Shown here: in pieces, positions 2,947 through 39,600 of the stretch
Layout of the letters: the number at the start of each line of letters is the position of its first letter
How positions within the stretch are numbered: position 1 is the first letter of the stretch
Assembly (NCBI GenBank): GCA_964435105.1
Contig: CAYSYJ010000001.1
Location: forward strand, 1 to 40,083
DNA from: an uncultured Elusimicrobiaceae bacterium
Lineage (GTDB): Bacteria > Elusimicrobiota > Elusimicrobia > Elusimicrobiales > UBA9959
Direction of reading: 5' to 3'
Length of the DNA stretch: 40,083 nt
Notes under the pieces: model-generated
The model's input: only the letters and a program-made list of their open reading frames with translations
What the model was told of the DNA's origin: nothing
The model's database searches: none
Program-made: the position numbers and the translations under genes

Positions 2947-2970
2947 GGCGGATACGGTCCGCCAGCCAGC

Positions 2971-3098
2971 GGACGGCAGGGTATGCCTTGCCGAGGGACA
3001 TCGCGCAGGACCGAGCTTGCGTAAGCGCGAGGTCCGAGCGAGAGGCGCGCGCACGGTGTGCGCGACGCCGTGCCCGAGGAAGGCATACCCTGTCGGCC
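2971..3098 (+). ncRNA. candidate structured RNA / structured repeat element, copy 1 (three helices)
   Basis: Outer helix is CAGGGTATGCCTT (2977-2989) with AAGGCATACCCTG (3080-3092). Inner helices are GGACC/GGTCC (3008-3012/3031-3035) and GGCGCGCGCAC-GGT-GTGCGCG-A-CGCC (3044-3069). It aligns over its full length with the reverse complement of 26363-26492, with compensatory changes. Confidence 0.55.
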
Positions 3099-3138
3099 GC
3101 TAAGGCGCTAACCTCCGCGCACGCTCGCTGAACGAACA

Positions 3139-5626: not shown

Positions 5627-6313
5627 TCAGCGGGGGCGCAGGTTTTCGCAGACTATCTCGGTGTCGGTCTTCCAGCCGAGGGCTTTCCGGACCTCGCCGG
5701 TCACGCGCACGGCGCTCAGGCCGCTGCGCAGGTCCAGTTCGGCCGAGCCGCGGGTGGACAGGCCGCCGTTGTTCTGCTCCTGGCAGCCCAGCGTGAGCAC
5801 AGCGCCGTCGAAGGAGGCGGCCGCGGGCCGGCAGAAGGCGGCTATGTCGCCGCCGGAGAGGTCCTTGAGGACGCCGAGCGTGGCCCTGCGGCCCTGGTCT
5901 TCCACATAAAGCACGGTGCCGTTAGCCCTGTTTTCGGCCTCCACCAGGCAGCCTTTGCCGTTGGTGTAGACGCCTTTCCGGATGACGGGGATCGCGGCGG
6001 CCTTGGGCGCGCCGGCGGGTACCATCACCATCAGGGCGCAGCCGCCGTTCTGGGCCACGGAGGAGTCGATCCTGGGGCGCTTGACGGTGGAGCCGTCCTT
6101 GCAGGCGAAGCTGCAGGTGTCGCCCTGCGAGCCGGCGAACTTGCAGACCTGCATGCCGGGGAAGGCGGCGCCGACGTTTATCATTTCGGCCCTGTCGGCC
6201 AGGCCGGCGCGCACATGGGCGGCGTCCATCGGCTGCAGCTGCGGGGCGGCGAGCTCGGCCGCCGCGGGGGCGCCGAGGGCGAGGATCAGCGTGAGGGTGA
6301 ATATGTTCTTCAT
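5627..6313 (-). CDS. secreted hypothetical protein with a C-x9-C-x3-C module
   Basis: 228 aa with SD AAGGAG upstream and signal peptide MKNIFTLTLILALGAPAAA. Cys module is CKFAGSQGDTCSFACKDGSTVKRP. Confidence 0.7.
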   Translation of the reverse strand: MKNIFTLTLILALGAPAAAELAAPQLQPMDAAHVRAGLADRAEMINVGAAFPGMQVCKFAGSQGDTCSFACKDGSTVKRPRIDSSVAQNGGCALMVMVPAGAPKAAAIPVIRKGVYTNGKGCLVEAENRANGTVLYVEDQGRRATLGVLKDLSGGDIAAFCRPAAASFDGAVLTLGCQEQNNGGLSTRGSAELDLRSGLSAVRVTGEVRKALGWKTDTEIVCENLRPR

Positions 6314-7397: not shown

Positions 7398-7493
7398 AGG
7401 GGACGCTGATTACTTTATTACTTTTGCTTCGAGGAATGCCCGGTTAGCAAGGGGTAGGTAATGGCAAAAGTAATAAAGTAATCAGCGTCCCCT
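7398..7493. repeat. long perfect hairpin A (30-bp AT-rich arms, 36-nt loop)
   Basis: AGGGGACGCTGATTACTTTATTACTTTTGC (7398-7427) is the exact reverse complement of 7464-7493. It starts 1 nt after the TAG stop of the upstream gene. Confidence 0.9.
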
Positions 7494-9077: not shown

Positions 9078-9126
9078 ATATAGGCAGCGCAGTACCGAGT
9101 CCACAAACAGCCGTATGGGAGGAGTA

Positions 9127-10395
9127 ATGTTAAGGAAAGCAGCCGCAGCGTTCGCGATTCTGTCCGTTACCGCAACCCTGGTGTCCGCCGAAATAAGCTT
9201 CGACACCCCCAACAAGTCCACCCTGCAGCAGGAGATAGCCGCCCTGGACATCAATGTCCCGGCCGTTCCTGTCATAGAAGAGGGGAACAAGGCCGCCGCC
9301 AAAGAGTGGACCATCATGGTCTTCCTCAACTCCAAGAACAACCTGGAGCGCTACGGCCTCCTGGACCTCAATGAGATGGAGAAGGTCGGCTCCTCCGATA
9401 AGGTGAACATAGTAGTGGAGATGGGCCGCATCAACGGCTACGCCACCAATGACGGCGACTGGAAGACCACCCGCCGCTTCCTGGTGCAGAAGGACAATGA
9501 CTTCTCCAAGGTGACCTCCCCCGTGCTCGCCGACCTCGGCAAGACCGACATGGGCGACTATAAGAGCCTGATCGCCTTCGTCAAGTGGGCCAAGGCGACC
9601 TACCCGGCCAAGAAGTACGCGCTGATCGTGTGGAACCACGGCTCCGGCTGGGACAAGGGCCGCGCCCTCGAGACCAAGGGCATCTCCTACGACGACGAGA
9701 CCGGCAACCACATCACCACCCCCCAGCTGGGCCTGGCCCTCAAGGAAATGGGCGGCGTGAACGTGTACGGCTCCGACGCCTGCCTGATGCAGATGCCTGA
9801 AGTCACCTACGAGATCAAGGACTATACCGAGTACATCGTGGGTTCCGAAGAGACCGAACCCGGCGACGGCTACACCTACGACCTGTGGCTCGGCCCCGTG
9901 GTCGCCAAGGGCAACATGAGCTCCTACGAGATGGGCAAGGCCGCCGTGGACGGTTACAGCAACCACTACCAGCAGATCGGCCAGGCCTCCACCCAGAGCC
10001 TGCTGAAGAGCTCCGCGCTGCGGGACTTCACGGTGCTGGTCAACGACTTTGTGACCTCCGCCATGGACACCGGCGAGAAGCAGCTGGTGAAGACCGCCGC
10101 TTCCGGCGCCCAGAGCTACGCCGTCTACGACAATAAGGACATGGGCCACTTCTTCGACCGCTACGCGGCTACCACCGCCAACGCGGACGTCAAGATGAAG
10201 GCCCTGGCCCTCAAGAGCTATATCGACGGCTCCCTGATCGTCCATAACCGCGTGAACGGCAACTTCGCCAACGGCAACAGCCACGGCATAGCGGCCTACA
10301 TGCCCGGTTATTCCTTCAACTCCGACTATATGGACCTCGCCTGGGCGCGGGACTCCCAGTGGGACGAGTTCGTGAAGTGGTACCAGGCCAAGTAA
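9127..10395 (+). CDS. secreted clostripain-like cysteine peptidase (MEROPS C11), paralog 1
   Basis: Start moved to ATG 9127 because of SD GGGAGGAG at 9117-9124. Signal peptide is MLRKAAAAFAILSVTATLVSA. The catalytic His block is LIVWNHGSGW and the Cys block is YGSDACLMQM. IVGSEETEPGDGYTY is also conserved. Confidence 0.85.
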   Translation: MLRKAAAAFAILSVTATLVSAEISFDTPNKSTLQQEIAALDINVPAVPVIEEGNKAAAKEWTIMVFLNSKNNLERYGLLDLNEMEKVGSSDKVNIVVEMGRINGYATNDGDWKTTRRFLVQKDNDFSKVTSPVLADLGKTDMGDYKSLIAFVKWAKATYPAKKYALIVWNHGSGWDKGRALETKGISYDDETGNHITTPQLGLALKEMGGVNVYGSDACLMQMPEVTYEIKDYTEYIVGSEETEPGDGYTYDLWLGPVVAKGNMSSYEMGKAAVDGYSNHYQQIGQASTQSLLKSSALRDFTVLVNDFVTSAMDTGEKQLVKTAASGAQSYAVYDNKDMGHFFDRYAATTANADVKMKALALKSYIDGSLIVHNRVNGNFANGNSHGIAAYMPGYSFNSDYMDLAWARDSQWDEFVKWYQAK

Positions 10396-10413
10396 TATAT
10401 AAAGCCTGAAAGG

Positions 10414-10447
10414 GAAGGGCCGGCTTAACCGCCGGCCCTTCTTTTTT
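10414..10447 (+). terminator. intrinsic terminator of peptidase paralog 1
   Basis: GAAGGGCCGGC-ttaacc-GCCGGCCCTTC followed by TTTTTT. Confidence 0.8.
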
Positions 10448-10471
10448 AAAGGGGACGAGGGGGACGACGAG

Positions 10472-10563
10472 GGGGACGTTGGTTAGTTGGTTAGTATTTT
10501 GGCTATGCCGACCGGTAAACCTGAACGCCAAGCGCAAATACTAACCAACTAACCAACGTCCCC
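10472..10563. repeat. long perfect hairpin B (28-bp arms, 36-nt loop)
   Basis: GGGGACGTTGGTTAGTTGGTTAGTATTT (10472-10499) is the exact reverse complement of 10536-10563. G-runs flank the left side and C-runs the right. Confidence 0.9.
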
Positions 10564-10622
10564 TATCCCCCCCTATCCCCCCTGTTCCCTTTGGGCCCAG
10601 GCGGCTCTGGGCCCAGCGCCCC

Positions 10623-10651
10623 TTGTGACAGGGGCGGGGTTCTCCTAGACT
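10623..10651 (+). promoter_or_regulatory. putative promoter of peptidase paralog 2
   Basis: TTGTGA (10623-10628), 17-nt spacer, TAGACT (10646-10651). The block AGACTATAGGCA resembles AAACTATATAGGCA upstream of paralog 1. Confidence 0.35.
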
Positions 10652-10690
10652 ATAGGCATGAGCATCAAGCGCAGCCTTACGGAGGACTCC

Positions 10691-12013
10691 ATGATACGCA
10701 AGCTCTCGCTGTCGGCCGTAGCGGTTTCCATGTTCGCCTCGCTGGTCTCTGCCGAGATCGGCTTCGACGGCGCCACCCGGGCGACCCTCTCGGACGAACT
10801 CTCCAATATCCAGGTAGCCGCCGCCGGCGCCCCCGAGGCCGCGCAGGACAAGGGCATTATCGATTGGCTGCTGGGCAAGAAGCAGCCCGCCGAGTGGACC
10901 ATCATGGTCTTCTCCAGCGCCAAGAACGACCTGGAGTCCTTCCTGCTCAAGGACCTCAACGAGATGGAGATGATAGGCTCCTCCGACAAGGTCAATATCG
11001 TGGCCGAAGTCGGCCGCATCGAGGGTTACGATTCCTCTGACGGCGACTGGAAGGGCGTGCGCCGCTACCTCATCACCAAGGACAACGACACTTCCAAGAT
11101 GGGCTCCAAGATGCTGCAGGACCTGGGCATGAAGGACATGGGCGACTACCGCTCCCTGGTGGACTTCGGCAAGTGGGCCAAGGAGAAGTTCCCGGCCAAG
11201 CGCTATATGCTGATAGTTTCCAACCACGGCTCCGGCTGGGAGAAAGGCGTGGAGCGCCCCATCATCACCAAGGGCATCTCCTATGACGAGCAGAGCGGCA
11301 ACCACATCAATACCCCTCAGCTGGGCCAGGCCCTGCGCCAGATCGGCAAGCTGGACGTGTTCAGCACCGACGCCTGCCTGATGCAGATGGCCGAGGTCGT
11401 CTACGAGATCAAGGATTCCGTGGATTACATAGTGGGTTCCGAGGAGACCGAGCCCGGCGACGGCTATACTTATAACACCTTCCTCGGCCCCGTGGTCGCC
11501 CGCCCCACCATGACCCCCAGGGAAGTGGGCAAGCAGACCGTGGACGCCTATAGCGACCATTATGACAGCATCCGCCAGGGCTATACCCAGGCCCTCGCCC
11601 GCGGCGGCGCGGCCGTGACCAACCTGCTGCCCGTGACCAACGCCTTCACCGACGCCGTGATGGCCGCCGGCGAGAAGGAGCTGGCCAAGAGCGCCCGCGA
11701 CGCGGCCCTCTCTTTCGCGATAGAAGAGAACAAGGACCTGTACGACTTCACCCGCCGCGTGGTGGAAGGTTCCCAGAACGCCGACGTGAAGGCCAAGGGC
11801 CAGGCCCTGATGAACTACATAACCGGCACCCTGGTGCTGCACAACCGCACCCGCGATTCCCAGGGCGGCTACTGGAGCGGCCCCGTGCAGTACACCCTGG
11901 CCAAGGGCATGGCGGCCTACTTCCCCAACGCCTCGCTGGGCGCCGGCTACACCGACCTGGCCTGGGCCAAGGCCTCCAAGTGGGACGAGTTCGTGGTGTG
12001 GCTCAACAACTAA
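10691..12013 (+). CDS. secreted clostripain-like cysteine peptidase (C11), paralog 2
   Basis: Start moved to ATG 10691 because of SD GGAGGA at 10681-10686. Signal peptide is MIRKLSLSAVAVSMFASLVSA. The catalytic blocks are LIVSNHGSGW and FSTDACLMQM; IVGSEETEPGDGYTY is also conserved. Confidence 0.85.
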   Translation: MIRKLSLSAVAVSMFASLVSAEIGFDGATRATLSDELSNIQVAAAGAPEAAQDKGIIDWLLGKKQPAEWTIMVFSSAKNDLESFLLKDLNEMEMIGSSDKVNIVAEVGRIEGYDSSDGDWKGVRRYLITKDNDTSKMGSKMLQDLGMKDMGDYRSLVDFGKWAKEKFPAKRYMLIVSNHGSGWEKGVERPIITKGISYDEQSGNHINTPQLGQALRQIGKLDVFSTDACLMQMAEVVYEIKDSVDYIVGSEETEPGDGYTYNTFLGPVVARPTMTPREVGKQTVDAYSDHYDSIRQGYTQALARGGAAVTNLLPVTNAFTDAVMAAGEKELAKSARDAALSFAIEENKDLYDFTRRVVEGSQNADVKAKGQALMNYITGTLVLHNRTRDSQGGYWSGPVQYTLAKGMAAYFPNASLGAGYTDLAWAKASKWDEFVVWLNN

Positions 12014-12030
12014 AAGATCGGGCTTAAGAA

Positions 12031-12067
12031 AGAAGGGCCGGCTTAACAGCCGGCCTTTCTTATTTTT
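12031..12067 (+). terminator. intrinsic terminator of peptidase paralog 2
   Basis: AGAAGGGCCGGC-ttaaca-GCCGGCCTTTCT followed by TATTTTT. It is clearly paralogous to the terminator at 10414-10447. Confidence 0.75.
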
Positions 12068-12074
12068 GTAAGAT

Positions 12075-13106
12075 TTGGCTATGAAAGTCCTGTTGCTGGG
12101 CGGAGGCGGGCTGTTGAGCGGGGCTGCGCGGGAGGCTTTTCTCGCGGCCGGCCACGATGTGACCGTGCTGACGCGCGGGGCGAGGGAGCTGCCGTCTGCG
12201 GACCGGCTGAGCGCGCTGCGGGCCGACCGCCGCGACCCGGCGGCGCTGGCCCGGGCGCTTTCCGGCAAGCGTTTCGATTTTACCGCCGATTTCCTGGCCT
12301 ACAACGGCGAAGACGTGGCGGGGCTTTTCGCCGCCCCGGGCTTCTCGCCCGGCCGCCTGGCCATGATCTCCACCGGCCAGGTCTACCTGGTGACCAGGGG
12401 GCAGAAGCCGCCTTTCAAGGAGGGCGACGCGGACGCGCCTGTCATACCCGAGCCGGCCCGGGGCACGCGGGACTGGGACAACTGGGCTTACGGCATGGGC
12501 AAGCGCGCGGCGGAGGCCGGGCTGCTGCGGCTGGCGGGGGAGAGGGGCGTAAAAGTTCTGGCCCTGCGGCTGCCGGTAGTGCAGGGCGAGGCCGACGGGC
12601 TGGCCTCGCGCCGGCTCTGGGCCTGGCTGCAGCGCATGCAAGACGGCGGGCCGGTGCTGCTGCCCGACGGCGGGTCGCAGCCGGTGCGCTTCGTCTACGC
12701 CGGGGACGCCGCCGCCGCGCTGCTGCGGCTGGCCGCGGGCGAGGGCTGGCCGGCGGGCCCCGCGCTGAACCTGGCCCAGCCGGGCGAGACTACCCTTAAG
12801 GAATTTTTGGAAATGGCCGCCGCCTGCGCCGGCCTCAAGCCCGGTTTCGTGCCCGTCGCGGGCGCCGAGCTGGAGCGGGCCGGGCTGGCCGACACTTGCG
12901 CCCCGTACTGGAGCCGCTGGTGCTCGCGGCTGGACCCGTCGGCGGCCTTCGCCCTGGGGTTTAAGACGCGCGGCCCGGAGGAATACCTGCCCGGCGTGGT
13001 GCGCGCCCACCTGGCCGGCCCGCCTCCCGCCCCGCACGAGGGTTACGCCCGCCGGGCCGGGGAATTGGCCCTCGCGGCGAGGCTGCGCGCCGGCGGTTCC
13101 GCTTAA
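12075..13106 (+). CDS. NAD-dependent epimerase/dehydratase (SDR) family protein
   Basis: 343 aa with N-terminal Rossmann motif MKVLLLGGGGLLSGAAREAFLAAGHDVTVLTRG. Confidence 0.75.
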   Translation: MAMKVLLLGGGGLLSGAAREAFLAAGHDVTVLTRGARELPSADRLSALRADRRDPAALARALSGKRFDFTADFLAYNGEDVAGLFAAPGFSPGRLAMISTGQVYLVTRGQKPPFKEGDADAPVIPEPARGTRDWDNWAYGMGKRAAEAGLLRLAGERGVKVLALRLPVVQGEADGLASRRLWAWLQRMQDGGPVLLPDGGSQPVRFVYAGDAAAALLRLAAGEGWPAGPALNLAQPGETTLKEFLEMAAACAGLKPGFVPVAGAELERAGLADTCAPYWSRWCSRLDPSAAFALGFKTRGPEEYLPGVVRAHLAGPPPAPHEGYARRAGELALAARLRAGGSA

Positions 13107-13122
13107 ACGGCCGTGTAATCCC

Positions 13123-15147
13123 CTATTCGCCGCGCCAGCGCAGTGTGCCGAAGAGATCGCTGAAATCGTCGGTCCAGGGGCGGCGCCCCGGCGGCGCCGG
13201 TATGGCCTGCGCCCGGCCCTTGAAGTCCGCGGCCGCGTAGAGGCCCGGCCTGCCGCCCACCAGCACCCAGGTGGCGCTGCTCGAGGCGTCCTCGGCCCGC
13301 TCGCCGCTGGAGATGGCAAAGGCCTTTTTGCCGGCCGCGTCGGCGGCCAGCCGCACCACGGGCTCCAGGTCCAGGTAGATGCTCGAGACGTGCACCGCCA
13401 GCACCCCGTCCGGCTTGAGATGCCGGAAATAAAGCTCGAAAGCTTCCTTCGTCAGCAAATGCACCGGTATGGAGTCGCCGGAGAAGGCGTCCACCGCCAG
13501 CAGGTCGAAATTCTGCGGCGGTTCGCGCTGCAGGGCCAGGCGGGCGTCGCCGTGCTCGGCTATCTCGACGCTCGCCGGCGTATCTCCCAGGAAGCTGAAC
13601 ATGCGCTCGGCCGTATCGGTGACCAGCGGGTTGATCTCGTAGAAGCGGAAAGCGTCGCCCGGCCGGCCATAGGCGGCCGCGGTGCCGGCGCCCAGGCCTA
13701 TCACGCCCACGCGCAGCGGGCCGCGCGCGCCCTCGGCCCGCAGGGCCAGGCCCAGGCCGCTCTCCCTGCCGTAATAGGTGGTGGGCACGCCGCGCTTCTC
13801 CGGTTTCTGGAACTGGGCCCCGTGCAGCACCGCCCCGTTGGTGAGGTAGCGCACGGCCTCCGGCCCGTCGGAGCCCTCCTGCGTCACCAGCAGGGTGCCG
13901 TAGAAATTTCGCTCGGCGCTGAGCAGGCGGCCGTCCACCTTGCGGGCCTCGTCCCAAAGTGAGACCGGCAGGCCGCAGAACAGTATCCCCAGCAGTATCC
14001 AGGCCGGCGAGGGCCGCGCCTCCTCGTCCCGGTAGAAAGCCCACCAGGTGAGCAGCACGAAAGCGCTTACCCCGATAGGCAGCTCGTAATAACCGTTAAA
14101 AAGCCGCGGGGCGAGCAGCCCCACGAACAGCCCGCCAGCCGCCCCGCCCAGCGACAGCGCCAGGTAGAACCAGGTCAGCCGCGATTCGTGGGGGCGCCGG
14201 CGGGCCAGTTCCCCGTGGCAGGTCAGGCAGGCGGTGAAAAGGCCGCCCAGCAGGAGCGGCAGCAGGTAGTTCAGGTCCATGTCGCCCATGTCCCTGTAAA
14301 GCGGCAGGGCCAGCGCCGCTGCGGCCAGCACCGGGAAGGGCAGGAAGGCGCGGCTCCAGGTCCAGCGCGCCGGGGCGAACACGAAAATGAAGCTGAGCAG
14401 GTACAGCGTAAGCGGCGCCAGCCACAGGAAAGGCACCGGGGCCACGCTCTGGGTGAGGTGGTTGGTCACGGCCAGCAGCAGCAGCGAGGGGCAGGCCGCG
14501 AGCAGCAGCCACAGGAGCAGCTGCCCGGGCCTCGGCGCCGGGCCCGCCGCGCCGGCGGCCGCCTGCGGGCGCCAGCCGGCCGCCTCACCGGCGGCCCTGG
14601 CGCAGAAAACGGCGAAGACCGCGTAGCCGGCGGCCCAGAGGCCTAGCTGCCACTTGAGCGGCAGCCAGGGCTCCACCAGCACCGGGTAGGCCAGCAGGGC
14701 CAGCAGCGAGCCGGCATTGGAGAGGGCGTAGAGGCGGTAGGGGGAAACGCTTCCGCCTTTGCGGGCCAGCCAGGCCTGAAGCAGGGGTCCCGTGGAGGAC
14801 AGCGTGAAATAGGGCAGGCCGGTCATCAGGAGCAGCAGGCCCAGCAGCGCCAAGGAGGGATCGGCCCCGCCCGGTCCGCGCGCGCGCAGCAACAGGAGCG
14901 GCAGGGCGGCCAGGCCGGCCAGCAGCAGCCGCCGGTGCAGGCGGGCCTGCGCCTCGGGCGCCGCCCGCACCGCCAGCAGGTGGGCGTAGAGGTAGCCCAG
15001 GAACAGCAGCGCCTGGAAGAAGACCATGCAGACCGCCCACACCGCCGCACCGCCCCCGAAAGAGGGCAGCAGCGCCTTGGCGATCATAGGCTGCAGCAGG
15101 AAAAGCAGCAGCGCGCCAAGGAAGACCGCAGGCGGGAAAGGGTTCAT
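13123..15147 (-). CDS. fused polytopic-membrane / spermidine-synthase-like methyltransferase-fold protein
   Basis: 674 aa. The N-terminal ~400 aa form many hydrophobic helices. The C-terminal part has VGVIGLGAGTAAAYG...FYEINPLV...DLLAVDAFSGDSIPVHLLTKEAF...LKPDGVLAVHVS, typical of spermine/spermidine-synthase-like folds. Confidence 0.75.
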   Translation of the reverse strand: MNPFPPAVFLGALLLFLLQPMIAKALLPSFGGGAAVWAVCMVFFQALLFLGYLYAHLLAVRAAPEAQARLHRRLLLAGLAALPLLLLRARGPGGADPSLALLGLLLLMTGLPYFTLSSTGPLLQAWLARKGGSVSPYRLYALSNAGSLLALLAYPVLVEPWLPLKWQLGLWAAGYAVFAVFCARAAGEAAGWRPQAAAGAAGPAPRPGQLLLWLLLAACPSLLLLAVTNHLTQSVAPVPFLWLAPLTLYLLSFIFVFAPARWTWSRAFLPFPVLAAAALALPLYRDMGDMDLNYLLPLLLGGLFTACLTCHGELARRRPHESRLTWFYLALSLGGAAGGLFVGLLAPRLFNGYYELPIGVSAFVLLTWWAFYRDEEARPSPAWILLGILFCGLPVSLWDEARKVDGRLLSAERNFYGTLLVTQEGSDGPEAVRYLTNGAVLHGAQFQKPEKRGVPTTYYGRESGLGLALRAEGARGPLRVGVIGLGAGTAAAYGRPGDAFRFYEINPLVTDTAERMFSFLGDTPASVEIAEHGDARLALQREPPQNFDLLAVDAFSGDSIPVHLLTKEAFELYFRHLKPDGVLAVHVSSIYLDLEPVVRLAADAAGKKAFAISSGERAEDASSSATWVLVGGRPGLYAAADFKGRAQAIPAPPGRRPWTDDFSDLFGTLRWRGE

Positions 15148-15168
15148 GGGCCTATCATAACAAAATCG

Positions 15169-15262
15169 GGGGTCAGGTCTTTACTTTTGACCTTTTCGGT
15201 CAAAAAAATACGGGTGGTCCCGTCCGGGGCTCCCAAAAGGTCAAAAGTAAAGACCTGACCCC
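15169..15262. repeat. long perfect hairpin C (28-bp arms, 38-nt structured loop)
   Basis: GGGGTCAGGTCTTTACTTTTGACCTTTT (15169-15196) is the exact reverse complement of 15235-15262. The arm sequence is the same as in hairpins D and E. Confidence 0.9.
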
Positions 15263-15351
15263 ATTCCCTTGATTGGAGACGGATAAATATAATAGTCTTG
15301 TGGAAGGTAACCCTATAAGGGGGCTCCCGCCCCCGTTTCTGGAGGCAGTTA

Positions 15352-16626
15352 ATGAAGAAGATAGCGATAGCGGTGTTCGCCCTCGCGTTTTCCGCCCAGG
15401 CCGCGCTGGCCGGCGTGAATTTCGACGGCGGCAGGTTCGACCTGAAGCAGGAAATCACTAACCTCGATATCTCCGTGCCCGCGCCCGCGGCCGCCAAGGC
15501 CCGCCCGGACAAGGAATGGACCGTGATGGTCTTCATCAACGCGAAGAACAACCTTGAGAAATACGGCCTCAAGGACATGAACGAGATGGAGATGATCGGT
15601 TCCGGCGACAAGTACAATGTCGTGGTGGAGCTCGCCCGCATCAACGGCTTCGACACCTCCGACGGCGACTGGAAGACCTCCCGCCGCTACCTCGTGCAGA
15701 AGGACAACGAGCCGGCCAAGGTCACCTCCCCGGTGGTGCAGGAACTGCCCTCCGTGGACATGGGCGACTACAAGCACCTCGTCGACTTCGTGAAGTGGTC
15801 CAAGGCCAATTACCCGGCCCGCAAGTACATGCTGATAGTCTGGAACCACGGCGCCGGCTGGATCAAGACCCCGCTGCGCTCCCCGGTGAAGGGCATCTCC
15901 TACGACGACCAGACCGGCAACCACATCACCACCCCCCAGCTGGGCCAGGCCCTCAAGGAAGCGGGCGGCGTGGACGTGTACGGCTCCGACGCCTGCCTGA
16001 TGCAGATGGCCGAGGTGGTCTACGAGCTCAAAGACCACGCCAAGTACATAGTCGGCTCCGAGGAGACCGAGCCCGGCGACGGCTACACCTATAACACCTT
16101 CCTGGCGCCGCTCGCGGCCAAGCAGGACATGGGCCCGGCCGAGCTGGCCAAGGTCACGGTGGACGCCTACAGCGACCATTACCAGCAGATCGGCGAAGGT
16201 TCCACCCAGAGCTATATCCGCACCTCCGCGCTGGCCTCCTACCTGGACGCCTCCAACGCCTTCGCCTTCGCGATAACGCAGGCCGGAGACAAGGAAGTGG
16301 CCAAGCAGGCCATGAGCCAGGCCCAGAGCTACGCCTACCCGGAGAACAAGGACGTCTACCACTTCGCGCAGCTGGTGGCCGGCGCCACCCAGAACGCCGA
16401 CGTGAAGGCCAAGGCCGAGGCCCTGATGGCGAACATCAAGACCAAGGTGGTGGCCCATAACCGCACCAATAACAGCGAGGGCGGCTGGTGGGGCCCCACG
16501 CTCTACGACGACTCCCACGGCATAGCGGCCTACCTGCCCGGTACCGCCGCCCCGGCGCACTACGCCGACCTGCAGTGGGCGCAGTACTCCAACTGGGACG
16601 AGTTCATCGCCTGGCTGGCGCAGTAA
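15352..16626 (+). CDS. secreted clostripain-like cysteine peptidase (C11), paralog 3
   Basis: 424 aa with SD GGAGG upstream and signal peptide MKKIAIAVFALAFSAQAALA. The catalytic blocks are LIVWNHGAGW and YGSDACLMQM; IVGSEETEPGDGYTY is also conserved. Confidence 0.87.
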   Translation: MKKIAIAVFALAFSAQAALAGVNFDGGRFDLKQEITNLDISVPAPAAAKARPDKEWTVMVFINAKNNLEKYGLKDMNEMEMIGSGDKYNVVVELARINGFDTSDGDWKTSRRYLVQKDNEPAKVTSPVVQELPSVDMGDYKHLVDFVKWSKANYPARKYMLIVWNHGAGWIKTPLRSPVKGISYDDQTGNHITTPQLGQALKEAGGVDVYGSDACLMQMAEVVYELKDHAKYIVGSEETEPGDGYTYNTFLAPLAAKQDMGPAELAKVTVDAYSDHYQQIGEGSTQSYIRTSALASYLDASNAFAFAITQAGDKEVAKQAMSQAQSYAYPENKDVYHFAQLVAGATQNADVKAKAEALMANIKTKVVAHNRTNNSEGGWWGPTLYDDSHGIAAYLPGTAAPAHYADLQWAQYSNWDEFIAWLAQ

Positions 16627-16635
16627 CGGGGGAAT

Positions 16636-16710
16636 GGGGTCAGGTCTTTACTTTTGACCTTTTACCCCTCGCAGCATATCTCGAAAGGTCAAAAGTAAAG
16701 ACCTGACCCC
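16636..16710. repeat. long perfect hairpin D (27-bp arms, 21-nt loop)
   Basis: GGGGTCAGGTCTTTACTTTTGACCTTT (16636-16662) is the reverse complement of 16684-16710. It is part of the 16627-16800 duplicated module. Confidence 0.9.
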
Positions 16711-16723
16711 TTAAAATAAAAGA

Positions 16724-16759
16724 AACCGGCCGGGGAGCGATCCCCGGCCGGTTCTTTTT
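16724..16759. terminator. bidirectional intrinsic terminator
   Basis: AACCGGCCGGGGA-gcga-TCCCCGGCCGGTT followed by CTTTTT, with AAAATAAAAGA on the other side. It lies between convergent genes. Confidence 0.8.
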
Positions 16760-16844
16760 GGCCTCTGCGGGAGGGGCTTAAACCCTTTCCTTGGCGGCCG
16801 GGTCCTCGACCTTGGCCTTCTTGGCGGCCGGCACGGCGGCGGGT

Positions 16845-19100
16845 TTAGCGCTGCGCGGCGTAGCTCGCGGCGCAGGCCCCGGGCGTGTCGAAGGCGCGGT
16901 TTTTCAGCCCGTCGGGCAGCGGCAGCCCCTCGAGGCCGCCGGGAGGAGCTTCCAGGCAATCTATCTCGTCCGCCGTGAAATACTTGAGCAGTTTTCCTTC
17001 CAAGTAGCAGCTGTCGCAGCCCGTTATCGCGTTCCATCCCGCGCGGCCGGCCGGCGGGGCCGCGCCCTTGTTGCGCAGGTTGCGTACATAGGCCAACGCC
17101 AGGTAGGCGGAGTAATCCGCCGGCGCTATTATGGTGTCGCCCCACTTCCGGACGGCAAGGTCCATGTCGCCGCCGGCATCCGCCACGGACCTGTAGCCGG
17201 AGGCGGGCGTGCCGTAGGAGCGCGCGGCCCAGGCGCGGCTGGAAATGAACAGCTGGTAATCCCCGTAAGCTTCGGCGCGGTTATTGTTGCCTATCCCGGA
17301 GAAAAGATAATCATAGGCGCCGTACAGGAGATCTTCTTCCTGGGGGGTGTTCGAAGAAGTGGAAAGTTTTATCCCGCTCAGGGCTTCCAGCTCCTTCGGC
17401 GCCAGGGCCATGCCGGCATCCAGCACGCGCTTGAGGCGTCTCTTGCCCAGGCGCATTATCACCGGCGGGGGTATGGCTTCCAGCTCCAGTAACAGGCGGG
17501 TTTCTTCGTCTGAAAGCCCGCCGGCGGCCCGCCTGTGCGAGGCCATGTTGTCAGAGGAAAGTTCTCCCACGCCGCGCCCGAGGCGCTCTTCGGCGGGATG
17601 CAGCCAGGTCCCGCGGCCGTCCTTAAGGTGACCCAACAGCAGTGCCGCGTAGGCGCGCGTGCCGGCCAGCTTGGCGGCCAGCCGCTGGTCGGCAAGGGAG
17701 ATGGCGGACACGGCTTTAAGGCCGCGCGGGTAATCCGTCACCAGGTAAGCCGTGGCCAGGGCCAGTTTCCGCGGTGAGCCGGAGTTGTGTCCGGCGACGG
17801 CGGCGGCCAGGCCGAAGCCCTCCACGTCTATGGTGGCGGCCTCGGCGGGCAGGGCCCGCAGGTAGGCCGCCGTTTCGGCGAGCGGGCTGGCGACGGCCTG
17901 GTGGCAGCCGGAGGAGCCGGGTGGCGCCAGCGGGTTGGGGATGAGCAGCTTCTCGCCGGAATCGCCGATATAGCAGTAGGGATAGGCGAAGGTGTACGGG
18001 GTGTGGTAGGCGAGGCTGCCGGCCGAGCCCGCGAAATAGAGTTCGTCGAACGAAACCCCTGACTTGAGCAGGGCGCTTACGGTGGCCCCGAGTATGTCCC
18101 CGTACCAGCTGTCTTCCGCCGCCACCGCCACATAGGTGGAGGTGCCTATCTCGGCCGAGAAGGCCTTGAAGCCTTTCCCGGACTTCTCTTTCTTTATATA
18201 AGGCGCGAACTCCTCGCGCAGTTCGCGGTAGTAGCCGAGCAGGAGGCCCCGGAAAGAGCGGGGCAGGCCGGACTCGAACGCGGCCAGCACGCCGGGGCAG
18301 GGCTTGGCGGGCGCGGGCCGCGCGTCCACCAGCACTTCGGGCTCAAGGCCGCGCTCCGCCAGCAGCAGGCCGTATACCCGCAGCACGTGAGCGAACCAGG
18401 AGGCGCCCGCGAAATCGCACAGGACCAGCGCGGGCTTTTTCCCGCCGGTGAGGTAGGCCTGGAAGCCGTAGGTGGAGCCGGGAACGCGCAGGGACCTGAC
18501 CTTGCCCTGCTCCGCGCCGGCCAGGGCCAGGGCGTCGGCGGCGGGCCCCCGGGAGAAGATGACGCGCGCCGGGGCGCTGCCGGGGCGCAGAAGCGCGCCC
18601 AGCGGGCCGGCCTGGGCGGCTACGTAGGAGGCGACGTCGTGCATGGGAAGCGTTTCGCCCGGCAGGGAGCGCACTTCGGGGGGAAAGCCGGCCGCCGCCG
18701 GGGGCGGGTCCGGCAGGCGGCCGGCGTTGGCCGGTTCCGCCAGGCGCTCGCCGGAAACGTAGAAATACGCGCCGGTATCCTTTACGGCGGAATCGAACGC
18801 CTGCCGGGCGCCGCCTTTAAGCCCGGCGCAGGAGGCGGCCTGCGAGCTTATCCGGCGCAGCAGGTCGTCCAGCCGGGGATTGCTCCCGGTTTTTTTAAGC
18901 GCTTTTTTCTCCGCCTCGGAGAAACAGTCGCGGGGGACCGCCGGCTCCCCGCCGGAATAGCGAGAGAGGTAGTACGATATGCTGCGCGAATAAGCCGCGG
19001 CCACGCCGGCAGCCACCCCCGGCGGCAGTCCGGCTTCCGAGGCGTGCGGGAGGGCGGGGAAAAGTAAAAGGACCGCGGCGGCTCGCAGGAGGCTTTTCAT
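16845..19100 (-). CDS. large secreted hypothetical protein (751 aa), function unknown
   Basis: Signal peptide is MKSLLRAAAVLLLFPALPHASEA. The central part weakly resembles a nucleoside phosphorylase/nucleosidase fold, with FAGSAGSL, IDVEGFGLAAAV and AYLVTDYP in the expected order. The C-terminal domain is not recognised. Confidence 0.7.
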   Translation of the reverse strand: MKSLLRAAAVLLLFPALPHASEAGLPPGVAAGVAAAYSRSISYYLSRYSGGEPAVPRDCFSEAEKKALKKTGSNPRLDDLLRRISSQAASCAGLKGGARQAFDSAVKDTGAYFYVSGERLAEPANAGRLPDPPPAAAGFPPEVRSLPGETLPMHDVASYVAAQAGPLGALLRPGSAPARVIFSRGPAADALALAGAEQGKVRSLRVPGSTYGFQAYLTGGKKPALVLCDFAGASWFAHVLRVYGLLLAERGLEPEVLVDARPAPAKPCPGVLAAFESGLPRSFRGLLLGYYRELREEFAPYIKKEKSGKGFKAFSAEIGTSTYVAVAAEDSWYGDILGATVSALLKSGVSFDELYFAGSAGSLAYHTPYTFAYPYCYIGDSGEKLLIPNPLAPPGSSGCHQAVASPLAETAAYLRALPAEAATIDVEGFGLAAAVAGHNSGSPRKLALATAYLVTDYPRGLKAVSAISLADQRLAAKLAGTRAYAALLLGHLKDGRGTWLHPAEERLGRGVGELSSDNMASHRRAAGGLSDEETRLLLELEAIPPPVIMRLGKRRLKRVLDAGMALAPKELEALSGIKLSTSSNTPQEEDLLYGAYDYLFSGIGNNNRAEAYGDYQLFISSRAWAARSYGTPASGYRSVADAGGDMDLAVRKWGDTIIAPADYSAYLALAYVRNLRNKGAAPPAGRAGWNAITGCDSCYLEGKLLKYFTADEIDCLEAPPGGLEGLPLPDGLKNRAFDTPGACAASYAAQR

Positions 19101-19179
19101 CGTTATCGGGCTCCGGTCGTCGGCGGTAAAATGCCGGCGTTCGGCCTGATCCTATATTATAGACAAAACCCGGGGGAAT

Positions 19180-19254
19180 GGGGTCAGGTCTTTACTTTTG
19201 ACCTTTTACCCCTCGTAGCATATCTCGAAAGGTCAAAAGTAAAGACCTGACCCC
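19180..19254. repeat. long perfect hairpin E (copy of D)
   Basis: Identical to hairpin D except for one loop base (C to T). It is part of the 19171-19344 duplicated module. Confidence 0.9.
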
Positions 19255-19267
19255 TTAAAATAAAAGA

Positions 19268-19303
19268 AACCGGCCGGGGAGCGATCCCCGGCCGGTTCTT
19301 TTT
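19268..19303. terminator. intrinsic terminator (copy of 16724-16759)
   Basis: Same AACCGGCCGGGGA-gcga-TCCCCGGCCGGTT stem with T-runs. It lies downstream of the minus-strand membrane protein gene. Confidence 0.8.
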
Positions 19304-19322
19304 CGCCCCTGGAAGGAGGGGC

Positions 19323-20819
19323 TTAGGCCCTTTCCTTGGCGGCCTCGGCGGCCTTGCCGCCGGCGGGCGCCTCGCAGGCGACTTCGCTGTCCTTCTCGGG
19401 CTCCACTTCGTGGGCCTTCGCCAGCTCGCAGGCGCGCTTCTTCTCGGAGCGGCCTATGAAGTAGATGGCCACGAACATCAGCACCAGGCCTATCCAGTCC
19501 TCGGTCTTGGGCATCTTCTGCCCGGGGATGAACCAGAACACGAACAGGGTGGCCACGGTGCCCGCGATGAGCGAGGTCAGGCGGTTCACCAGGCCGGCGA
19601 AGGTCGCAGTGCGTCCCTTGAACATGAACAGGAACACGGAGAAGAAGGCCGCGATACCGAAGGGCAGGCCGGAGAACATCACCAGCTTCCAGCGGTCGGG
19701 GGCGTGCTTGAAGGCGTTGGAGAACTGGAAGGCGAAGGAGCGGGTCACGTCCTTCACCGGCTTCTCCAGGGCCAGTTGGGCGGCCGCCAGGTCCTCGGCC
19801 TTGGCCTTCCTGGCGGCGAGCAGGGCCGCGGCGGAGGCGAGGGCCTCCTCGGTCTCGGCGCGCTGCTCCGGGGTGAACTTGGAGGTGTCCGAGGCCAGCA
19901 GGTCCTGGGCCTTCTGCATGGCGGCGGAGAGGGCCTGCTTCTCGGCCGGGGCGGCGGCCGCCGCGGCCACGGGCTCGGCGGCGGGCGCGAAGGGCAGCTC
20001 GGCCGGCTTATTGACCACATTGAAGAAGATGAAGCCCGCCAGGACCAGGGTCGTGAACGAGGTCACCTGCTCGATGGCGAAGAAGCCCTTGGTGTCGTAG
20101 ACGGCGCCCTTGGGCCGGGTGTTCTTGTAGTAGTTCATGATGTAGATGCGGATGGTGTAGGCGATGAGGTAGAAGGTAAGGATGGTCATCGCGGCCGCAT
20201 TGCCGATGAAGTCGAAGTTGGCCTTGTCTATCACGAACAGAGCCGAGAAGAAGGCCCCGGCGCCGGAGGCCTGCGCGGCGGCGGCCGCGCCCTTGAAGTT
20301 GAGCATCTGCAGGGCCACGGCGGCGAGCGCTATGACCACGGCGACGTTCTCCTCCCAGTAGACCTTCTTGGTCAGGATGCCCTGGCGGATCTGCACCTCG
20401 TCGATGGCGCGGCTGATGACGATGATGCTCGCCCGCATGATGATCATGGCGACCATCACCGAGATGGGCAGGGTGTACATCAGCGTGGTGGTGGGGATCA
20501 CCACCGCGGTGCAGATGCCCGAGGGGATTATATAGAGGAACTCTTTCGGCATGCTGACGCCGAGGATCTTGGTGTAGTTGGTGGACTGGAACTTGTACCA
20601 GCGCAGCAGCAGCACGATGCCGGTGGGGATGAGCATGCTGCCCATCGTGTTGAAGACGGTATAGGTGGTGCCGCCGATGCCGATGACCTTGTCGAAGTAC
20701 TTGGCCAGGAAGCCGGTGAGTACGTACAGGGAGAAGTAGCCGAAGGAGAGCTGCAGCAGCCGCTCCGTGGTGCCTTCATGGGTCTTGCTGGTGAAGACCG
20801 TTACCAGTGTCTTGATCAT
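19323..20819 (-). CDS. polytopic membrane protein with an Ala-rich soluble insertion, function unknown
   Basis: 498 aa with SD AGAGGA upstream. There are about 10 hydrophobic segments. They are interrupted by PAAEPVAAAAAAPAEKQALSAAMQKAQDLL...AARKAKAEDLAAAQLALEK. Confidence 0.7.
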   Translation of the reverse strand: MIKTLVTVFTSKTHEGTTERLLQLSFGYFSLYVLTGFLAKYFDKVIGIGGTTYTVFNTMGSMLIPTGIVLLLRWYKFQSTNYTKILGVSMPKEFLYIIPSGICTAVVIPTTTLMYTLPISVMVAMIIMRASIIVISRAIDEVQIRQGILTKKVYWEENVAVVIALAAVALQMLNFKGAAAAAQASGAGAFFSALFVIDKANFDFIGNAAAMTILTFYLIAYTIRIYIMNYYKNTRPKGAVYDTKGFFAIEQVTSFTTLVLAGFIFFNVVNKPAELPFAPAAEPVAAAAAAPAEKQALSAAMQKAQDLLASDTSKFTPEQRAETEEALASAAALLAARKAKAEDLAAAQLALEKPVKDVTRSFAFQFSNAFKHAPDRWKLVMFSGLPFGIAAFFSVFLFMFKGRTATFAGLVNRLTSLIAGTVATLFVFWFIPGQKMPKTEDWIGLVLMFVAIYFIGRSEKKRACELAKAHEVEPEKDSEVACEAPAGGKAAEAAKERA

Positions 20820-36580: not shown

Positions 36581-36689
36581 AAATAGGGACGGAGCCCTAT
36601 TTCCATGTTTTGTATCCCCAAAATTATCCTTGTTTTATAAGGATATTTGTCTTTGCGACCGGGGAATAAATAGGGCTCCGTCCCTATTT
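36581..36689. repeat. long perfect hairpin F (22-bp arms, 65-nt AT-rich loop)
   Basis: AAATAGGGACGGAGCCCTATTT (36581-36602) is the reverse complement of 36668-36689. The right arm overlaps the RND stop codon. The left arm ends 2 nt from the SD of the next gene. Confidence 0.9.
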
Positions 36690-39600
36690 ATTCGCCGGTG
36701 GCGCCGAGGAGGTCCTCGCGGACTTCCGGCTCGGGCCGGGCGGGCCTGAGCTGGTGCTCCTTGTCCTTGAAGGCCAGGTAGTAGAGCACCGGCACCGCCA
36801 CGCGGCTCAAGAGCGTGGCCGCTATCTGCCCGGCTATGAGCGAGATGGCCAACCCCTGGAAGATAGGGTCGAACAGGATCACGCCCGCGCCCACTATCAC
36901 GGCGAGCGCCGTCAGCAGCATCGGCCTGAACCTGACCACGCCGGCCTCTATCACGGCCTCCCGGAGCGGCATGCCCTCGCGCACTTTCAGGTTCACGAAA
37001 TCCACCAGGATGATGGAGTTGCGCACCACGATGCCCGCCGAGGCGATAAAGCCTATCATCGACGTGGCGGTAAAGAAGGCGCCCATGCCCCAATGCGCGG
37101 GGATGATGCCGATGAGCGCCATGGGGATGGCCGCCATGATGACGAAGGGCGTCAGGAAGCTCTCGAACCACGCCACTACGAGGATGTAGATGAGCACCAG
37201 CACCATGGCGAAGGCGAGGCCCAGGTCCCGGAACACCTCGTAGGTGATATGCCACTCGCCGTCCCACTTCACGGCCGTCTCGGCGGCGCTGGCCGGCTGG
37301 CGGGTGAAATACTGCTTTATGCCGCCGCCGCGCGCCTTGGAGAGCGCGTCTATCTTCTTCTTGAGGTCCAACACGGCGTAGACGGGGCTCTCGGTGCCGC
37401 CGGCTATGTCCGCCGTGACATAGGCCACCCGCTGCAGGTTCTTGCGGTAGATGGGGCGGTTCTCCAGGCCGTCTTCGGCCTTCACGAAGCTGGCCATGGG
37501 GATGGCCGTGCCGTTGGGGGAGAAGAACTTTATTTCCTTGAGCGTGGCGAGCTCGCGGCGCTTCTCCGGCGACAGGCGCAGCCTTATGTCCACCGCCTCG
37601 TGCTCCTCGGCCACATGGGCCGCGTCTATGTCCGCGCCGGCCAGCGACATCGCGGCGGTCTGCGCTATCTCGGCCGCGGCCACGCCGTTCAGGGTGGCCT
37701 TCTGCCGGTCCACCAGCAGGCGCGTCACCGGCTGTACGTCGGGGATATAGGAATCCACGTCCACTATGCCCTCGGTGCCTTTGAGCAGGTTCTTTATCTC
37801 CTCGGCCAGCTGGCGCTGGTTCTCGGGATTGGGGTCGAACACCTCGACGAGCAGGGTGGCCATGACCGGCGGGCCGGGGGGGACTTCCGCCACCTGCACG
37901 CGCGCCCCGTATTTATCCGCTATCTCCTTCAGCTTCGGGCGGGCGGCCAGGGCGATGTCGTGGCTCTGGCGCTTGCGGTCGCGCTTGTCCGACAAGTTCA
38001 CCTGTATGTCGGCCTGCCAGGGTTCCTTCCTCATGAAGTAATGACGCACCATGCCGTTGAAGTTATACGGCGCGCTGGCCCCGGTGTAAACCTGCAGGTC
38101 GCGCACCTCGGGCACGGTGGCGAGATAAGCCGCCATCTCGCCCGCCGCGCGCTCAGTGCGGGCCAGCGAGGAGCTCTCCGGCATATTGATGATCACCTGG
38201 AACTCGTTCTTATTGTCGAAGGGCAGCGTCTTGAAGATCACCAGCCGACCGGCCACCATGGCGAGCGCCCCGGCCAGCAGCGCCGCCGTGAACCACAGGA
38301 ACTTCTTGCCGTTGGCCGGCGCGTAGATGAGGCGCTTCATGAGGCTGCGGTAGTTGCGGTCCAGGAAACCCTCGTTCTTGTTCTCGCAATGCTTGAGCGG
38401 CCATTTCTCCACCACGCGGGCGTACAGCCACGGGGTGAAGGCGAAAGCCACGCCGAGCGAGAACAGCATGGCCACCGACGCGCCTATGGGGATGGGGCGC
38501 ATATAGGGCCCCATCAGGCCGCTGACGAAGGCCATGGGCAGGATGGAGGCGATCACCGTCCAGGTGGCGAGTATCGTCGGGTTGCCCACCTCGTCCACGG
38601 CGTTGAGGATATTGCGGAACAGCGAGTTCTTCTTGTTCGCGGCGCAGTGGCGGTTGATGTTCTCCACCACCACTATGGCGTCGTCCACCAGGATGCCGAT
38701 GGAGAAGATGAGCGCGAACAGGGTGATGCGGTTGAGGGTGTAACCGTAGAGATAATAGACCAGCATGGTCAGGGCGAGGGTGACCGGTATGGCCACCAGC
38801 ACCACCGCGGCCTCGCGCAGGCCGAGCGTCAGGGCGATCAGCAGCGTGACGGAGAGCGTGGCCAGCAGCATATGCCAGATGAGCTCGTCCGATTTGGCCT
38901 TGGCGGTCTCGCCGTAATTGCGGGTCACGGTCACGTTGACGCCGTCGGGGATCTCGCGCCCCTTCATCTTCTCCACCTTGGCCAGGATGTCGCGGGACAC
39001 CTCGGTGGCGTTGGCCCCCCGGCGCTTGGCCACGGAGAGCGTGACCGCCGGCGAGGCGGAGGCGGCCTTTACCGGGGAGGCCGGGCCCTGCAGCATGGTG
39101 ACGGAGCGCTCCTCCTCGTCGGGCCCGTCCTTGACGGCGGCCACCTCGGAGAGCCGCACCGGGCGGCCGTCGTAGACGCCCACCACGATGTTCTTCAGGT
39201 CCTCGGCGCTGCGGATGAAGGCGTCGGTGGCGGCCAGCAGCACCGTGTCGCCCTTATTGTAATGGCCGGCGGGCAGGCTGGTATTGGACATTTTGATGAT
39301 GCCGGCGAGCATCTGCGGCGTCAGGCGGTGGCGGGCCAGGGAGGCCGGGTCGAAATGGACGATGAACTGCCGCTTATGGCCGCCTATGACGCGGGTCTCG
39401 GAAACATTGGCGACGGAGTTGATCTCGGTCTGGATGCGGGCCGCGGCGCGGCGCAGGGCGTAGCCGTCCTTGCCCTCGCCCCAGAGGGTGAGGGCCAGCA
39501 CGGGCACGTCGTCGATGGCGCGGAACTTGATGAGCGGTTCGCCGGCGCCCTTCGGGAAGAGGTCCCTGTTGTCGAAGGTCTTGCTGTAGATGCGGTTCGC

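Follow-up and report, generated by a model that had tools for sequence, protein, structure and literature searches.

Identical-arm hairpins around single genes in an uncultured Elusimicrobiaceae bacterium: probable terminal-inverted-repeat doublets of a REP-type Y1 transposase

The window analyzed here is a 40,083-nucleotide stretch of DNA from an uncultured Elusimicrobiaceae bacterium (contig CAYSYJ010000001.1 of assembly GCA_964435105.1). Within it, a clostripain-family peptidase gene (peptidase 3) and an open reading frame (ORF) coding for 751 amino acids are bracketed by three long hairpins, designated C, D, and E, that share identical arms. An earlier note, made from the sequence alone, had described this arrangement as cassette-like, with single-gene units delimited by structured palindromic sites. 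We reexamined the hairpins in the window, in the remainder of the genome (G000; 2.62 Mb in 347 contigs, 65% GC), and in related genomes, all genomes compared being incomplete metagenome assemblies. We find it probable (at roughly 80%) that C, D, and E are doublets of the terminal inverted repeat (TIR) of a REP-type Y1 transposase, each consisting of two inverted 24- to 28-nt copies around a free spacer, and that they are not cassette boundaries.

Genes and hairpins at the peptidase locus

The 27-nt arm GGGGTCAGGTCTTTACTTTTGACCTTT is present exactly six times in the window, each time with 0 mismatches, while 100 shuffled sequences gave 0 matches. The copies located by this exact-match search form three inverted pairs, at 15169-15195 (+) and 15236-15262 (-) in hairpin C, at 16636-16662 (+) and 16684-16710 (-) in hairpin D, and at 19180-19206 (+) and 19228-19254 (-) in hairpin E. 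The stems of the three hairpins are perfect over 27 to 31 nt, with loops of 32, 21, and 21 nt, respectively, and folding as single-stranded DNA gave values of -38 to -54 kcal/mol (z = -10 to -12). Hairpin C (15169-15262, or to 15268 with its flank included) has 31-nt arms, and the sequence ATTCCC directly after its right arm is the reverse complement of GGGAAT, a flank of many other arm copies (see below). The order described in the earlier note, i.e., C, peptidase 3 on the plus strand, D, the 751-amino-acid ORF on the minus strand, and E, was confirmed in its coordinates and strands, as was the identity of the arms. Hairpins A and B, which had been grouped with the others, are real, but their arms belong to different families. 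Hairpin A (7398-7493) is a doublet of a third family, GGGGACGCTGATTACTTTATTACTTTT, with 6 doublets in the genome, and hairpin B (10472-10563), between the first two peptidase genes (pep1 and pep2), is a doublet of another family, GGGGACGTTGGTTAGTTGGTTAGT, with 11. In this pep1-pep2 spacer, directly 3' of the pep1 terminator, both G000 and its closest relative (G017) carry a doublet, with arms of different families (GGGGACGTTGGTTAGTTGGTTAGT and GGGGACGTTCATTCCTAATTCCTAATTC, respectively); either the site was struck twice or the arms were replaced.

Several ordinary explanations for such hairpins were considered and rejected. A search of Rfam at E <= 1 returned only sub-threshold plant and animal microRNA-precursor models, of a kind to which any long hairpin is similar. 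The doublets are not invertible promoters (invertons), as their loops of 1 to 41 nt are too short to invert and have no conserved content. Nor are they themselves intrinsic terminators; no T run follows the stem, and D and E precede a separate canonical terminator.

Peptidase 3 (15352 to 16626, plus strand) encodes a C11 peptidase (Pfam PF03415, Peptidase_C11; E = 9e-55) and is the third of three tandem paralogs, 50 to 58% identical to one another, that occupy positions 9115-16626. Relatives hold two to four copies, and the C11 peptidases are thus a small expanding gene family next to a variable gap. The 751-amino-acid ORF (16845 to 19100, minus strand) is lineage specific at this locus. To its right lies a conserved neighbor, a 498-amino-acid gene (g498; 19323 to 20819, minus strand), followed by a response-regulator gene. 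To the left of peptidase 3, between the pep2 terminator and hairpin C, lies a lineage-specific pair of ORFs of 419 and 674 amino acids (12060 to 15147, minus strand). The 751-, 674-, and 498-amino-acid proteins had no significant match in Pfam or the PDB.

Loci of the same genus share a common frame, g400-pep1-pep2-pep3-variable gap-g498-response regulator, and wherever peptidase 3 was present in the loci compared, it lay in the peptidase cluster upstream of g498. In G017 and in two similar metagenome contigs, pep1, pep2, pep3, and g498 are contiguous, with neither the 751-amino-acid gene nor the 419/674 pair and with no doublet between pep3 and g498. Homology with G017 ends at the pep2 terminator and restarts 6 nt past the right arm of hairpin C, at the pep3 promoter. 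At the position of the 419/674 pair, G017 has instead a GC-rich structured repeat of ~190 bp (…CCGAGCTTGCGTAAGCGCGAG…), of the same family as positions 2968-3101 of the window. In other relatives, the gap between pep3 and g498 is occupied by different genes, and none of those examined has the 751-amino-acid gene there. The best homolog of that gene is 48% identical and lies at another locus, in G016; any homolog at all was found in 16 of 43 genomes of the genus. When metagenomes were scanned with peptidase 3, no contig of the same species turned up; the best match was 83% identical and had a G017-like arrangement. On the basis of the gene content of G017 and the limits of homology with it, two lineage-specific insertions therefore border on C and on D/E. 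Peptidase 3, by comparison, is a syntenic gene with a doublet in each flanking spacer and is not a mobile unit. The proposal of the earlier note that units may be gained or lost at the hairpins is thus partly supported; the 751-amino-acid gene and the 419/674 pair are missing from G017, with borders at C and D/E, and peptidase 3 is fixed in place.

Hairpins D and E had been taken for separate delimiting sites. Both proved to be the opening part of one direct repeat of ~173 nt (16627-16799 versus 19171-19345, plus strand) that brackets the 751-amino-acid gene, so that the gene sits inside a 2,544-bp repeat period. The repeat opens with CGGGGGAAT, 1 base past the TAA of peptidase 3, and continues with the hairpin (D at 16636-16710, E at 19180-19254), a terminator hairpin, AAACCGGCCGGGGAGCGATCCCCGGCCGGTTCTTTTT (16718-16759 and 19262-19303), and the last codons of the 498-amino-acid gene. 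Copy 2 contains the true 3' end and stop codon of that gene (...AAKERA*), whereas copy 1 contains a diverged and decayed version of its 3' tail (...AAKERV*). As read from the sequence, the decayed tail continues on the minus strand (16800 to 16844) into a remnant similar to an Ala/Lys-rich stretch from within the 498-amino-acid gene; positions 16793-16842 match positions 19782-19831, in the internal part of the gene, at 84%. The two copies differ at 1 position, in the loop, over the first 133 nt versus 7 positions over the next 40 nt (Fisher p = 5e-4), and the D/E loop and terminator sequences occur in these two places and nowhere else in the genome. The identity of D and E is due to one segmental duplication and not to two insertions at sites. 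The step in identity suggests an older duplication of gene tail and terminator, of which the TIR-plus-terminator part would have been homogenized or copied later. Segmental duplication or Campbell-type recombination may have given rise to the direct repeat, with gene conversion subsequently homogenizing its first 133 nt, and precise loss of the 751-amino-acid gene by RecA-type recombination between the near-identical 133-nt stretches would be possible.

The arm and a Y1 transposase gene

The earlier note had also named REPIN-flanked islands as a parallel and had suggested a search for Y1 transposases elsewhere in the genome. This suggestion was borne out. Three genes of G000, on contigs C81, C173, and C282, score above the Pfam cutoff for Y1_Tnp, and each is flanked by a repeat whose family also forms hairpins elsewhere: GGGACGTAGATGAA... 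on C81, AAATAGGGACGGAGCCCTATTT on C173, and, on C282, the arm GGGGTCAGGTCTTTACTTTTGACCTTT itself. Doublets of the AAATAGGGACGGAGCCCTATTT repeat are present in the window as well, at 36581-36702. On contig C282, 45 nt separate the exact arm from the transposase ATG downstream of it. The encoded protein scores 42 bits against Pfam Y1_Tnp (cutoff, 23) and 79.7 bits against NCBIfam REP_Tyr_transpos (cutoff, 80). A PDB search yielded a single match, E. coli TnpA-REP (4ER8; E = 1e-4), in an alignment that places NHYHLIL on the HUH region and RYVVLNPV on the Tyr region. Orthologs in G048, G053, and G045, which are 65 to 66% identical, have the exact core of the arm on both sides in inverted orientation, giving an element of 954 bp from end to end that is found in differing genomic contexts. 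At full length, the protein of G048 and G053 has 297 amino acids. The orthologs in G032 and G038 have a variant TIR that covaries with them. The start of the arm, GGGGTCAG, fits GGGGWSAS, the TIR motif of the RAYT-like "TIRYT" genes (Di Nocera et al. 2013, PMC3733652). Judged by these comparisons of sequence, the arm is the predicted terminal inverted repeat of a REP-type Y1/HUH tyrosine transposase gene, i.e., of a 954-bp "TIRtron" of the TIRYT/RAYT type.

Two further features accompany the transposase genes. A small conserved hairpin of the form CCCGACA-N5-7-TGTCGGG separates the upstream TIR from the start codon in all three Y1 genes (C81:940-990, C173:960-1010, and C282:625-665) and in the orthologs in relatives; it may serve the TIRtron for regulation or recognition. 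On the minus strand of contig C282 (662-1516), an ORF of 284 amino acids ends inside the TIR (...GNGVRSLLLTF*), the repeat contributing its last 11 codons and its stop codon.

The 22-nt core of the arm occurs in 37 copies in G000 at <=1 mismatch (reversed control, 0) and is carried by 21 of the 43 genomes of the genus. In G000, the copies are arranged as about 12 hairpin doublets and a number of singlets. Each of the 26 doublet arms is a perfect match to the core, while singlets have 0 to 4 mismatches, and the doublet loops, of 1 to 41 nt, are unrelated between copies. The doublets occupy tight spacers, mostly between codirectional genes, starting 3 to 13 nt past a stop codon and ending 0 to 44 nt before the next start codon. 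When doublets at orthologous positions were compared, arms showed 0 to 1 change per 48 nt, whereas loop identity was 0.44 to 0.54 (0.43 to 0.49 for shuffled sequences) and the 40-nt flanks were 62 to 85% identical. Since the arms remain essentially identical while loops drift and neutral intergenic DNA is randomized, the arm sequence itself, and not only its capacity for pairing, is maintained. A single arm can form only a 6-bp stem (CAGGTC/GACCTG) with a 9-nt loop. The hexamer GGGAAT lies at the 5' flank of about half of the copies, including all singlets of the gene array on contig C26 (described below) and one arm of five doublets. No target-site duplication or fixed target was seen at the doublets, and a comparison of loops with empty sites in relatives, made with the idea that loops might be trapped host DNA, yielded no convincing match.

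At 2133-2193 of contig C26 (L001), GGGGAATGGC, GGGGAATG, and a full TIR come after a truncated TIR, GGGGTCAGGTCTTTACTTTC. The arrangement looks like one TIR unit inserted in another and suggests that GGGGAATG may be part of the mobile unit or may be its target. In addition, a composite repeat of ~90 nt, made up of GGGAAT, a TIR singlet, a CTAGCGAT..ATCGCTAG hairpin, and a CCGCCGGGG terminator, recurs in copies that are 87 to 91% identical (contig C26 [L001] 260-345, 817-915, and 6109-6200; C18:15953-16036 and 17010-17104; C44:14524-14605; and C212:3017-3106) and is found in G017 and G042 too. As in D/E, a TIR and the terminator next to it seem to be copied jointly.

These features can be compared with those of known repeat families. 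In TIRtrons (Di Nocera, De Gregorio, and Rocco 2013, BMC Genomics 14:522, PMC3733652), as here, a RAYT-like Y1/HUH gene lies between long TIRs that start with GGGGWSAS, the TIR is dispersed at moderate copy number as singles, dimers, and groups, and several transposase/TIR pairs occur per genome. The present case differs in its host, the Elusimicrobia not being among the phyla that we noticed in the text of that paper, and in its dimers, which are long perfect hairpins with unrelated 1- to 41-nt loops; moreover, arm conservation is shown here at orthologous sites across species. With REPINs and RAYTs (Nunvar et al. 2010, PMC2817692; Bertels and Rainey 2011, PMC3116915), the doublets share an inverted, extragenic, hairpin-forming structure, a cognate Y1 gene flanked by the repeat, and retention of elements at orthologous sites in related species, and the better conservation of doublets than of singlets is the same asymmetry as that reported for REPINs (Bertels and Rainey, PMC3116915). 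Unlike REPINs, the arms have no GTAG at either end and a single unit does not form a strong palindrome of its own; the spacer varies in length and sequence (the loops span 1 to 41 nt), in contrast with the characteristic lengths in SBW25; copies number in the tens rather than the hundreds; and the transposase element lies at different loci in different species. Miniature inverted-repeat transposable elements (MITEs) derived from insertion sequences likewise are short noncoding elements carrying the TIRs of a transposase-bearing parent, but here the copies have no internal sequence in common, target-site duplications were not observed, and the parent is of the Y1/HUH rather than the DDE type.

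Synteny at other loci and competing explanations

We compared synteny at five other doublet loci in five relatives. At all five loci, the flanking genes were adjacent in all five relatives, and each doublet is therefore a plain intergenic insertion of 80 to 95 bp. At three sites (C20, C34, and C37), the doublet is simply missing in the relatives; at the other two, an orthologous doublet exists, in G017 for both C9 and C3 and in G011 for C3. Moreover, in G053 (C19; L154, 800-1510), a gene for a pyruvoyl-dependent arginine decarboxylase, which shares an operon with agmatinase, has a doublet of the same arm on each side, both with very short loops of 8 to 9 nt, and thus core genes are bracketed too. 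With plain insertions at five of five other loci and a core operon gene bracketed in the same manner, the proposal that hairpin-bounded units are cassettes was largely not upheld; for the most part, the hairpins are distributed genome-wide without relation to gene-unit boundaries.

IS200/IS605 transposases act on folded single-stranded DNA. By the mechanism that we propose, the REP-type transposase would recognize the TIR on folded single-stranded DNA and would spread copies, maintain them, or both, and the doublet would be the favored and maintained state of the TIR. The clustering of five doublets in a 12-kb block may result from tolerance of recent insertions or from arrival together with them, with no need for a dedicated cassette machinery.

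Several observations weigh against regarding C, D, and E as nothing but such doublets. The transposase gene on contig C282 runs off the contig, leaving only the 5' TIR visible in G000, and no close transposase ortholog was found in the incomplete assemblies of G042 (19 core copies) and G017 (11 core copies). The loops are unrelated between copies, which is not so in classical REPINs. At the locus itself, the two lineage-specific insertions are bordered by doublets, at C and at D/E, and no more than 2 nt separate the left end of the D/E repeat from the outer edge of the TIR unit. Finally, of 42 doublets genome-wide (all six TIR-type families), 5 lie in one 12-kb block of the window, a density far in excess of that of the genome (Poisson P of ~2e-6, D and E being counted separately although they are not independent).

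Some of these same points speak for an explanation that we regard as unlikely but worth keeping in mind, namely, that doublets take part in local rearrangements and so become de facto unit borders, either as sites at which the Y1 enzyme mobilizes TIR-adjacent DNA by peel-and-paste or one-ended transposition or as substrates for homologous recombination or slippage. The indel borders relative to G017 at C and D/E, the coincidence of the repeat edge with the TIR-unit edge, and the local enrichment would fit, as would the recurrence of TIR-plus-terminator modules as units and the presence, in relatives, of other insertions of 0.5 to 2.7 kb at sites of G000 doublets (C9 in G031; C37 in G018, G031, and G011). 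However, the 419/674 insertion has a TIR at one side only, and the D/E repeat extends ~100 nt farther than the doublet, to include terminator and gene tail, unlike the product expected of a TIR-defined cut. The possibility that the TIR travels along with accessory genes was rejected, as no TIR was found beside the closest homologs of the 674-amino-acid (62%) or 751-amino-acid (48%) gene in other genomes. The plain insertions with conserved synteny at the five other loci also count against rearrangement at doublets.

A second explanation, to which we likewise assign a low probability, is that the host uses the doublets as structural elements, keeping them as stabilizers of mRNA 3' ends, modulators of translation or decay, or protein-binding sites, the link to the transposase being historical. 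E. coli REP sequences, those of malEFG among them, reportedly have such host roles (Liang, Rudd, and Deutscher 2015). The conservation of arms at orthologous sites across species in which neutral intergenic DNA is randomized would be expected if this were so, and the constant position 3 to 13 nt past stop codons in codirectional pairs and the persistence of copies in genomes without a detected cognate transposase would also be in keeping with it. On the other hand, a purely structural role needs no conservation of sequence identity beyond pairing, which is what the arms display, and the copies are low in number and patchy in their sites between species.

The suggestion that the hairpins resemble attC sites, acted on by a recombinase encoded elsewhere, fared poorly, and we consider integron-like cassettes very improbable here. 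Integron attC sites are imperfect palindromes with R''/L''-L'/R' boxes (RYYYAAC ... GTTRRRY) and extrahelical bases. Hairpins C, D, and E resemble attC sites and clusters of attC sites lacking integrases (CALIN arrays) in their look only, as foldable palindromes between single genes; their stems are perfect over 27 to 31 bp, without extrahelical bases and without RYYYAAC/GTTRRRY boxes. Being symmetric, they confer no array polarity, and the genes that they bracket lie on differing strands. The profile of integron integrases (TIGR02249; cutoff, 265 bits) gave best scores of 68 bits in G000 and 102 bits in the five relatives, none reaching the cutoff, and the sub-cutoff matches are Xer-like genes on other contigs. 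As for other recombinases, G000 encodes two of the Xer-like tyrosine type and three of the serine type, none of them on the window contig. Attribution of the hairpins to integrons was rejected on the basis of the perfect stems, the missing boxes, and the lack of an IntI; the syntenic position of peptidase 3, which is not mobile, argues against it as well.

The genome does contain a real cassette array, with arm singlets in some of its junctions, and this could be cited in favor of integron-like cassettes. On contig C26 (L001, 1-14500) and also on C18 (L002, 3300-6000), ~20 small, unrelated genes on the same strand follow one another (glyoxalase-, ICMT-, CMD-, and MBL-like, as annotated by eye). 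Between successive genes lies a constant module with a terminator-like hairpin, (G)AACCGCCGGGGnnGCCCGGCGG-TTTTGTTTTG(G)TAGAAT, which is followed after 5 to 9 nt by ATG. In relatives, the cassettes have ~80% identity and a shuffled order, in arrays of 15 to >75 kb that in G037 and G043 adjoin rpsJ at their start. When one cassette was aligned from five genomes, homology started at the constant module and stopped just past the stop codon. The constant junction is thus a different sequence from the arm. Where TIR singlets occur, they are part of the variable filler that separates stop codon from module, and most junctions have none; the TIR is therefore a lodger in the junctions and not the site of the array, and its candidacy as the constant recombination site was rejected.

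Finally, in an assembly of 347 contigs with a near-identical stretch of 133 nt, D/E could conceivably be a chimera made during metagenome assembly, two strain variants having been joined at a repeat common to both, but the repeat copies differ by a loop substitution and run into different, homologous sequences that have diverged by ~18%, so that both junctions exist in real DNA, and an artifact is hardly credible.

Consequences for repeats and cassette arrays in Elusimicrobia

For annotation, the reading of C, D, and E as TIR doublets means that identical-arm hairpins around single genes in these Elusimicrobia are to be taken as transposase-linked TIR/REP-type repeats and not as cassette sites. 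It also supplies a rule by which such repeats may be separated from cassette sites, namely, synteny at several copies together with the sharing of loops and flanks by neighboring copies. At the locus itself, a repeat and its adjacent terminator can be copied as a module, and the 751-amino-acid gene is left poised for precise loss.

A bolder reading, which we regard as improbable, is that TIR doublets or TIR-plus-terminator modules serve as working borders of gene units, the Y1 enzyme copying or moving the TIR with neighboring DNA via folded single-stranded DNA. If true, this would explain the D/E module, the doublet that borders the 419/674 insertion, and the TIR singlets in junctions of the rpsJ-linked array. 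To our knowledge, no recombinase is known for the rpsJ-linked cassette arrays of this genus, and Y1-driven movement of TIR-bordered DNA, if it occurs, would provide a candidate enzyme for the integrase-less cassette arrays of the group.

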